Shown: piece after piece, positions 22,178 through 22,833 of the stretch
Numbering within the stretch: position 1 is the first letter of the stretch
Layout: each line of letters begins with the position of its first letter
The notes under the pieces: model-generated
What the model saw: the letters and a program-made list of their open reading frames with translations, nothing else
Told to the model about the DNA's origin: nothing
Database searches by the model: none
Translations under genes and position numbers: made by a program
Assembly (NCBI RefSeq): GCF_055900595.2
Contig: NZ_CM148325.1
Length of the DNA: 64,000 nucleotides
Strand: one strand, 5' to 3'

Positions 22178-22833
22178 CTAGCGTAATGGAATGATATCGC
22201 CTTGCCAACCCTGTGATGAACGCTGACCGACTAACAATAATGAACCACGATCGGCGCGAACGATGAGACGACCATGTTCATCCCATAGTGCACTGTTACC
22301 ACGGGCATTTGCCATCAGCACGGCAATTGAGTACTGATGTGAAAAAAATTGTAAGCGGCGGGTCGACGCCAGCAGGTCGGGTTCCCCCAGACATTGCCCT
22401 GTCGTAAATAGTGAACAGGTCGGATCCATATCCATACCTTGCGGTTGTTCATCGACCACCGTGATGGTTCTGGAACGACGGCCCAGACATGCACCATGAC
22501 TCTGATGGTAGATCCCTGGCGTTTTTCGCCACGGTGCGAACACCGCAATTCCACGAATAAAGCGATCGTTATATTCAACGGGAAGGCCGGCAATGATGGT
22601 CATTCGCCAGGTCGTTGCAGCATAACAAAGCGGGTCTAACAGCGAGAGATCGGGGGGGCAGGAAGGGCACGTCGCGAATAATCACACCCCAGTAAAGAAA
22701 GCGATGGAAAAACTAACAGCTGACATTGTTGCCTGGCGGCGGCCCTCACAAACTCCAGATGATGAGCTACCTGTTCGGTCAGTGAGGTTTTACGAGGCTC
22801 ATATTGCGCTGCTGCAACTTTCCAGAACGACAT
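22178..22833 (-). pseudogene. yobB: yobB (C-N hydrolase family) interrupted by a 1-nt frameshift; fragments 22636-22833 (65 aa) and 22178-22603 (141 aa)
   Basis: The two ORFs lie in frames offset by 1; the 656-nt span is one base short of the 657 nt needed for a 218-aa gene plus stop; a G7 run (C7 on the coding strand) sits at 22652-22658 just upstream of the premature TAG. Confidence 0.6.

Follow-up and report, generated by a model that had tools for sequence, protein, structure and literature searches.

The sequence analysed here, referred to as the window, is a 64,000 nt stretch of contig NZ_CM148325.1 (RefSeq assembly GCF_055900595.2). According to the list of open reading frames and the RefSeq annotation of matching regions, the segment between 21.5 and 24.6 kb is the E. 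coli ptrB / exoX-yobB-holE / yobA-copD neighbourhood; the order of the ORFs agrees with the copD-yobA / holE-yobB-exoX / ptrB arrangement of RefSeq, such that yobB lies between holE and exoX. Of the 5426 complete E. coli genomes in RefSeq, 5425 gave a match to an 821 nt query around yobB, the match being 822 nt long in almost every case, and the window allele is 98.1-99.9% identical to the RefSeq-annotated yobB over these 821 nt in 5424 of the 5426. The product is named in RefSeq as carbon-nitrogen hydrolase family protein YobB, of 218 aa, and the intact gene has a length of 657 nt (218 codons and a stop) in the annotation of three complete E. coli genomes. The features of the locus are listed in Table 1.

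Table 1. Features of the yobB-exoX locus; coordinates are those of the window.
Feature	Coordinates	Strand	Remarks
yobB pseudogene, entire former coding region	22178..22833	-	656 nt against 657; one 1 nt gap relative to intact alleles
Run of seven C (seven G on the + strand) in which the -1 frameshift lies	22652..22658	-	intact relatives have C8 or CCCCACCC, coding for Pro60-Pro61
N-terminal ORF, 65 aa	22636..22833	-	61 native residues followed by out-of-frame ISRC; premature TAG at 22636-22638
C-terminal ORF, 141 aa, native frame	22178..22603	-	starts at the internal Met78 codon; native stop kept
Sigma-70 promoter of the yobB-exoX operon, TATACA-16-CATAAC	22903..22930	-	exact sequence, one occurrence, intact in the window
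exoX, downstream gene of the operon	21492..22154	-	intact; product identical to standard E. coli ExoX (EXOX_ECOLI-type P0091, exact protein look-up)

A preliminary description of this DNA, made from the letters alone, had named the gene as yobB and reported it to be split by a 1 nt frameshift at or near the homopolymer, and in most respects our comparison bears this out. The RefSeq annotation of the matching regions agrees with the name; the two ORFs are indeed in frames offset by one (their starts fall at 0 and 1 modulo 3), and together they span one nucleotide less than an intact yobB. Alignment to intact orthologues, which had been suggested as a check, gives a single C missing from the run as the sole length difference, the closest intact allele having C8 where the window has C7; in a four-way alignment the window likewise shows a single gap, in the poly-C run. 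As had been stated, the native C-terminal frame is open from 22681 on; this point is just after a TGA. The two frames overlap between 22636 and 22681, with the homopolymer inside the overlap. The one detail that does not hold is the placing of the TAG immediately after the run: four out-of-frame codons (ATC TCT CGC TGT) intervene before it.

The N-terminal ORF keeps the native Shine-Dalgarno sequence (AAGGAAG) and the ATG at 22831-22833. The start of the 141 aa ORF lies 32 nt past the premature stop, and no canonical Shine-Dalgarno sequence is recognisable upstream of it (gacctggcgaATG); its product (P0016) has only a weak match to CN_hydrolase and no match in NCBIfam. A functional split gene was considered and rejected, the N-terminal fragment being too short, the C-terminal ORF lacking a Shine-Dalgarno sequence and the arrangement not being conserved. 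A constitutive promoter and the assignment of yobB and exoX to a single operon have been reported previously (PMC3946193); a scan of 21400-23350 for promoter and terminator consensus sequences returned nothing beyond what shuffled sequence would give, and the published promoter was not among its matches.

Runs of G or C are depleted in the window: there are three of 7 nt, where approximately six would be expected in random sequence, and none of 8 nt. A single G/C run of seven is unremarkable by itself; the point is that the indel falls within it. The other two (5741-5747 in znuA and 47454-47460 in yoaE) are both within coding sequence and are intact, with no difference in length from the nearest complete genome.

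The homopolymer can be followed through a series of alleles. In the K-12-like and G749-like alleles the sequence reads CCT GCC CCA CCC GAT (Pro-Ala-Pro-Pro-Asp), that is, CCCCACCC, and this interrupted tract is the state of over 99% of the complete E. coli genomes, as read directly in those non-C8 alleles that were inspected. The closest intact allele, that of strain 2017-02-2CC, has instead CCT GCC CCC CCC GAT, in which a synonymous CCA to CCC change produces an uninterrupted C8; over 822 nt, C7 against C8 is the sole difference between the window and this allele. A 59-mer with C8 occurs in 27 of the 5404 complete genomes matching a 58 nt probe of the tract, whilst an exact match to the 58-mer with C7 occurs in none of the 5404, all of which have an 8 nt tract at this point (one difference from the probe). 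C8 is present on at least three allele backgrounds (the 2017-02-2CC, SMS-3-5 and R32_14_1F types), which differ at 12-13 sites and are all annotated as encoding an intact 218 aa protein.

The complete RefSeq genomes serve as outgroups rather than as a comparison within the clone, since the best match of the window among the 5426 is only 98.6% identical over 25 kb. Genomes of the same clone were therefore obtained by exact-protein look-ups, and include GenBank chromosomes of 5.36 Mb and a contig of 5.76 Mb. When the intact 218 aa protein (P0031) was used as a probe for C8 copies in the same clone it proved too common, being found in 24,958 index blocks, and the ten loci returned all came from other lineages, with an identity to the window of 97.1-98.5%; nine had a readable tract, which was CCCCACCC, and the tenth (L036) had no match to the tract pattern. 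Within the allele family of the window all the states of the tract are represented. One public genome (L052) has the window-type allele with CCCCACCC, and so retains the ancestral A, its yobB being one other SNP away from that of the window; C8 is found in H1, L049, L050 and L055, C9 in L037/L048, and C7 in the window itself, L006, L007, L041, L051, L054 and L056.

Outside a shared 4.3 kb block, 2017-02-2CC and the window diverge by around 1.5%. As C8 thus spans a deeper divergence than C7, the C7 state is most likely derived, with C8 as the step before it; judged from these allele relationships, C8 would be the older and broader of the two, and the direction of change would be from C8 to C7. 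The reverse order, in which CCCCACCC dropped its A to give C7 and a C was then gained to give C8, is formally conceivable. A second C7 allele, found in contigs L008-L013, is identical to the SMS-3-5-type C8 allele at all other sites, which implies that the contraction from C8 to C7 has happened at least twice. The frameshifted allele of the window is young: apart from the missing C, it does not differ from the C8 allele.

The shared block itself extends from 20860 to 25205 (approximately 4.3 kb, comprising the 3' end of ptrB, exoX, yobB, holE, yobA and copD), within which the window has two differences from 2017-02-2CC, whilst the flanks have around 10-40 differences per kb; it looks like a shared recombination segment with the C8-type yobB allele on it. 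Elsewhere, in the gap between yoaH and yoaC (53743-53772), the window is without a gene of approximately 450 bp encoding a pentapeptide repeat-containing protein that is present in 2017-02-2CC (L005 22092-22549), and the adjoining 0.5 kb is only 88% identical to that strain.

The length of the tract sets the frame of yobB, which is out of frame with C7, in frame with C8 and out of frame again with C9. The 25 longest contigs carrying the CopD variant of the window fall into three classes in this respect, assuming that the places not shown have the state of their representative. The first has C7 or no yobB product (L051 and nine similar places, L054 and L056); the second has C8 (L049 and two similar places, L050 and three, and L055), with 0-1 SNP in 4.5-6.9 kb; and a single contig, L048, has C9. 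All three lengths are found among genomes that share an identity of at least 99.95% across 7-10 kb, although the C8 copies that were read are on contigs of more than 5 Mb and two C9 copies have a second, suspicious insertion in a C run. According to published mutation-accumulation work, rates of insertion and deletion in E. coli rise exponentially with the length of a homopolymer, and G:C runs of 8 bp are rare outliers (PMC8510543). The run in yobB is a slippage hotspot, as the preliminary description had suggested as one option: C7, C8 and C9 occur among near-identical genomes, and the contraction has occurred independently on another allele.

These observations raise the matter of whether the tract acts as a phase-variable (contingency) switch, in which reversible, high-frequency changes of the poly-C would toggle yobB within populations, and perhaps exoX through polarity. 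The position of the tract in the 5' third of the coding region, the coexistence of the three lengths among such close relatives and the same contraction on a second allele are all as such a switch would have them. However, in mismatch-repair-proficient E. coli a tract of 7-8 nt should change at a far lower rate than a classical contingency locus, as the dependence of indel rate on run length would also indicate. Nor is the tract conserved, CCCCACCC being the sequence in over 99% of the complete genomes. The distribution of lengths fits one or a few inherited events, the C7 copies having identical flanks, and an intact yobB product is missing from 23 of the 25 longest contigs with a lineage-specific PtrB variant; part of the variation in length may, moreover, be technical. 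YobB is a predicted cytoplasmic enzyme homologue, rather than a surface or restriction-modification protein, and the unrelated lesions of yobB found elsewhere point to simple dispensability. We consider phase variation at this locus to be very unlikely. A bolder form of the idea, to which we give even less credence, is that the synonymous CCA to CCC change created a contingency locus de novo, with fast switching between C7, C8 and C9 generating heterogeneity in YobB, on or off, along with varying levels of exonuclease X. Were this true, a switch prone to slippage would come to govern exoX, a DNA-repair nuclease gene, by way of early termination within the yobB-exoX operon.

Doubtful to a greater degree still is an error of sequencing or assembly, in which the strain would truly have C8 and an intact yobB, one C having been dropped by the chemistry or in the consensus. 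Homopolymer length is a classic weak point of several sequencing platforms, and the near-identical complete genomes AP025754.1, GCA_964249055.1 and GCA_027278625.1 have C8; a further genome, GCA_044694285.1, has C9. The readable near-identical copies with C8 (L049, L050 and L055) are all on contigs exceeding 5 Mb, which are taken to be long-read assemblies, and the readable copies with C7 are on smaller contigs; part of the heterogeneity between C7, C8 and C9 could be technical for this reason. An excess of C that looks technical is also seen, in that C9 occurs together with an additional C in a C run of exoX in two assemblies of one run series, both runs being directly 5' of GATC; errors of this kind thus do arise at the yobB tract.

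Against such an error, the same C7 recurs in many independent assemblies of the lineage, from different sources, which over 7-20 kb show 0-2 SNPs and lack any further indel. The exact 65 aa product (P0001) is present in public assemblies, on 96 contigs and in 128 index blocks. Relative to the window, the Logan assembly of ERR11812577 has C7 with one SNP in 20,198 nt (99.995% identity) and zero gaps; a metagenome assembly from ENA has C7 with two SNPs in 15,716 nt (99.987%), also with zero gaps; and the NCBI contigs L051 and L056 have C7 and are 100% identical over 6.9 kb. Expressed as identity of the flanks, L054 is 99.87% and L006, L007, L051 and L056 are 99.99-100% identical to the window, all with C7, which was also read in the tract of L041. 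When the 64 kb are set against the nearest complete genome, no coding indel other than that of yobB disrupts a frame, and no other lies in a homopolymer. The few remaining indels are intergenic, lie in divergent segments or compensate one another, as does a -1/+1 pair near the 3' end of pabB, which is intact at 453 aa. C8 alleles are recovered as C8 in 27 complete genomes, and runs of 7-8 nt are shorter than assembly k-mers and not normally problematic for short-read chemistry. The lineage clearly carries C7; of the two options offered in the preliminary description, a real pseudogenising event or an assembly error, it is the former that is borne out by the same C7 in independent, near-identical short-read assemblies of isolates and metagenomes and by the lack of any other coding homopolymer indel in 64 kb. 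Our assessment, with a probability of roughly 85%, is that yobB in the window has truly lost its function through replication slippage in the homopolymer, and that the allele is inherited clonally.

Apart from the double insertion, these two assemblies (L039 and L040; Logan ERR12422958 and ERR12422813) do not differ from the window over 11.7-16.7 kb. The yobB tract is C9 in both (window 22652), and a C4 run in exoX has gained one C (window 22038), which splits exoX into 43 aa and 173 aa; each insertion abuts a GATC (Dam) site on its 5' side. The pattern suggests either a platform artefact or a mutator, mismatch-repair-deficient sub-lineage.

Least probable of all is recoding, whereby the C7 allele would still yield full-length YobB through -1 ribosomal frameshifting on C CCC CCG, or through transcriptional slippage: the 0-frame sequence GCC CCC CCG holds an X XXY YYZ heptamer as a formal match only, a -1 slip of tRNA-Pro would restore the native Pro-Pro-Asp reading and Pro-Pro motifs slow ribosomes, but the two-frame state is not conserved, with an 8 nt tract in all 5404 complete genomes matching the probe and yobB annotated as one intact CDS in every match inspected, the C7 allele is recently derived from one in frame, and no support for programmed frameshifting was found either in this conservation or in a fold of 106 nt, which revealed no significant downstream structure (MFE -20.7 kcal/mol, z = -1.28, with 19 of 200 shuffles folding at least as well). 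Efficient transcriptional slippage in E. coli is known for A/T runs of around nine or more, and is not known for C7.

The intact protein (P0031) matches the Pfam family PF00795 in two pieces, over residues 5-113 (E = 2.1e-19) and residues 116-208 (E = 1.5e-6), skipping around 36 positions of the model (113-148) in the middle of the domain, at around residues 113-116; a search of NCBIfam returned sub-threshold matches only. The N-terminus of YobB aligns with the glutaminase domain of NAD+ synthetase. A homology search against solved structures gave one weak N-terminal match only, too little to place the catalytic Lys and Cys; in this alignment (E = 0.11) the 'FPSLS' of YobB lies opposite the 'FPELS' of 5kha, placing Ser44 at the position of the catalytic Glu of the FPE motif (residues 42-46). 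Intact YobB is an uncharacterised and probably catalytically degenerate C-N hydrolase homologue, and even in its intact form it may be a pseudo-enzyme rather than a conventional hydrolase. The literature contains no functional study of YobB, which is mentioned only incidentally, in connection with the CpxR iModulon, the promoter of the operon and overexpression screens.

Lesions unrelated to the C7 contraction are found in yobB in other E. coli (contigs L042-L047 and L014-L016). These comprise a 1 nt deletion at 104, an inserted G at 144, the deletion of a T at 207, a TGG to TGA change at Trp76 (in three contigs) and a 1 nt deletion in the C4 part of CCCCACCC; they leave the same 141 aa C-terminal ORF. 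The contigs L010, L013, L015 and L017 have fragmented neighbouring genes and are clearly error-prone assemblies. The match in NZ_CM176349.1 (strain CAVP773; H40) is broken at query position 343 under an annotated IS30-family transposase, and is an independent disruption of yobB by an IS element. The spread of unrelated lesions fits a dispensable yobB, although the sampling is so large that an enrichment of lesions in this gene does not follow.

The allele comparison shows how the frameshift came about. A synonymous CCA to CCC change in the common CCT GCC CCA CCC GAT merged C4 and C3 into C8, and in the lineage of the window C8 then became C7, most likely in this direction, through the loss of one C. 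Slipped-strand mispairing is the probable cause of this loss, given the relationships of the alleles and the known rise of indel rates with run length. Translation from the normal start consequently departs from the native frame after Pro61, adds ISRC and ends at the TAG, giving a 65 aa fragment without most of the C-N hydrolase fold. The 141 codons that remain would at best be weakly re-initiated, and the function of YobB would be lost, since this remainder lacks a good ribosome-binding site. Through polarity, the early stop in yobB could also lower the expression of exoX, with which it shares an operon.

Phase variation by slipped-strand mispairing at poly-G/C tracts is a feature of contingency loci in Haemophilus, Neisseria, Campylobacter and Helicobacter. 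The yobB tract resembles these in being a poly-C in the 5' coding region, with lengths of 7, 8 or 9 that set the frame and are polymorphic among very close relatives; it differs in being short, in that over 99% of E. coli lack it and in lying within a cytoplasmic, enzyme-like gene of a species with active mismatch repair, and the genomes compared give no sign of rapid, reversible switching. Relative to the nitrilase / C-N hydrolase superfamily (PF00795), intact YobB is alike in matching the profile, in two pieces, but is distinguished by its length of only 218 aa, the missing model positions 113-148 and Ser44 in place of the FPE Glu. A further likeness is to the frameshift pseudogenes and indel hot spots at homopolymer runs of E. 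coli (PMC8510543), which share with yobB a single-base deletion in a mononucleotide run with a stop a few codons on, inheritance within a clone, and a run that is hit again on independent backgrounds; the yobB run also belongs to the rare class of 8 bp G:C outliers. Where yobB differs from these hot spots is that its run was not ancestral, but arose from a synonymous CCA to CCC change in a minority of alleles, and the hazard is allele-specific for this reason.

The lesion is hence a genuine, recent and lineage-specific -1 frameshift pseudogene of yobB, an ordinary phenomenon, and no long-standing question is opened by it. For annotation, a frameshifted pseudogene is the proper entry for yobB in this DNA, rather than a pair of small genes, and the missing C should not be put back as though a sequencing error had removed it. 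The finding adds support for the dispensability of a gene that is uncharacterised, whose product lacks the catalytic Glu of the enzyme family and which has several unrelated lesions in other lineages. A silent substitution made an 8 bp G:C run, and the frame was then lost at least twice independently; yobB thus illustrates cleanly, and in nature, how a synonymous change can raise the local mutational hazard.
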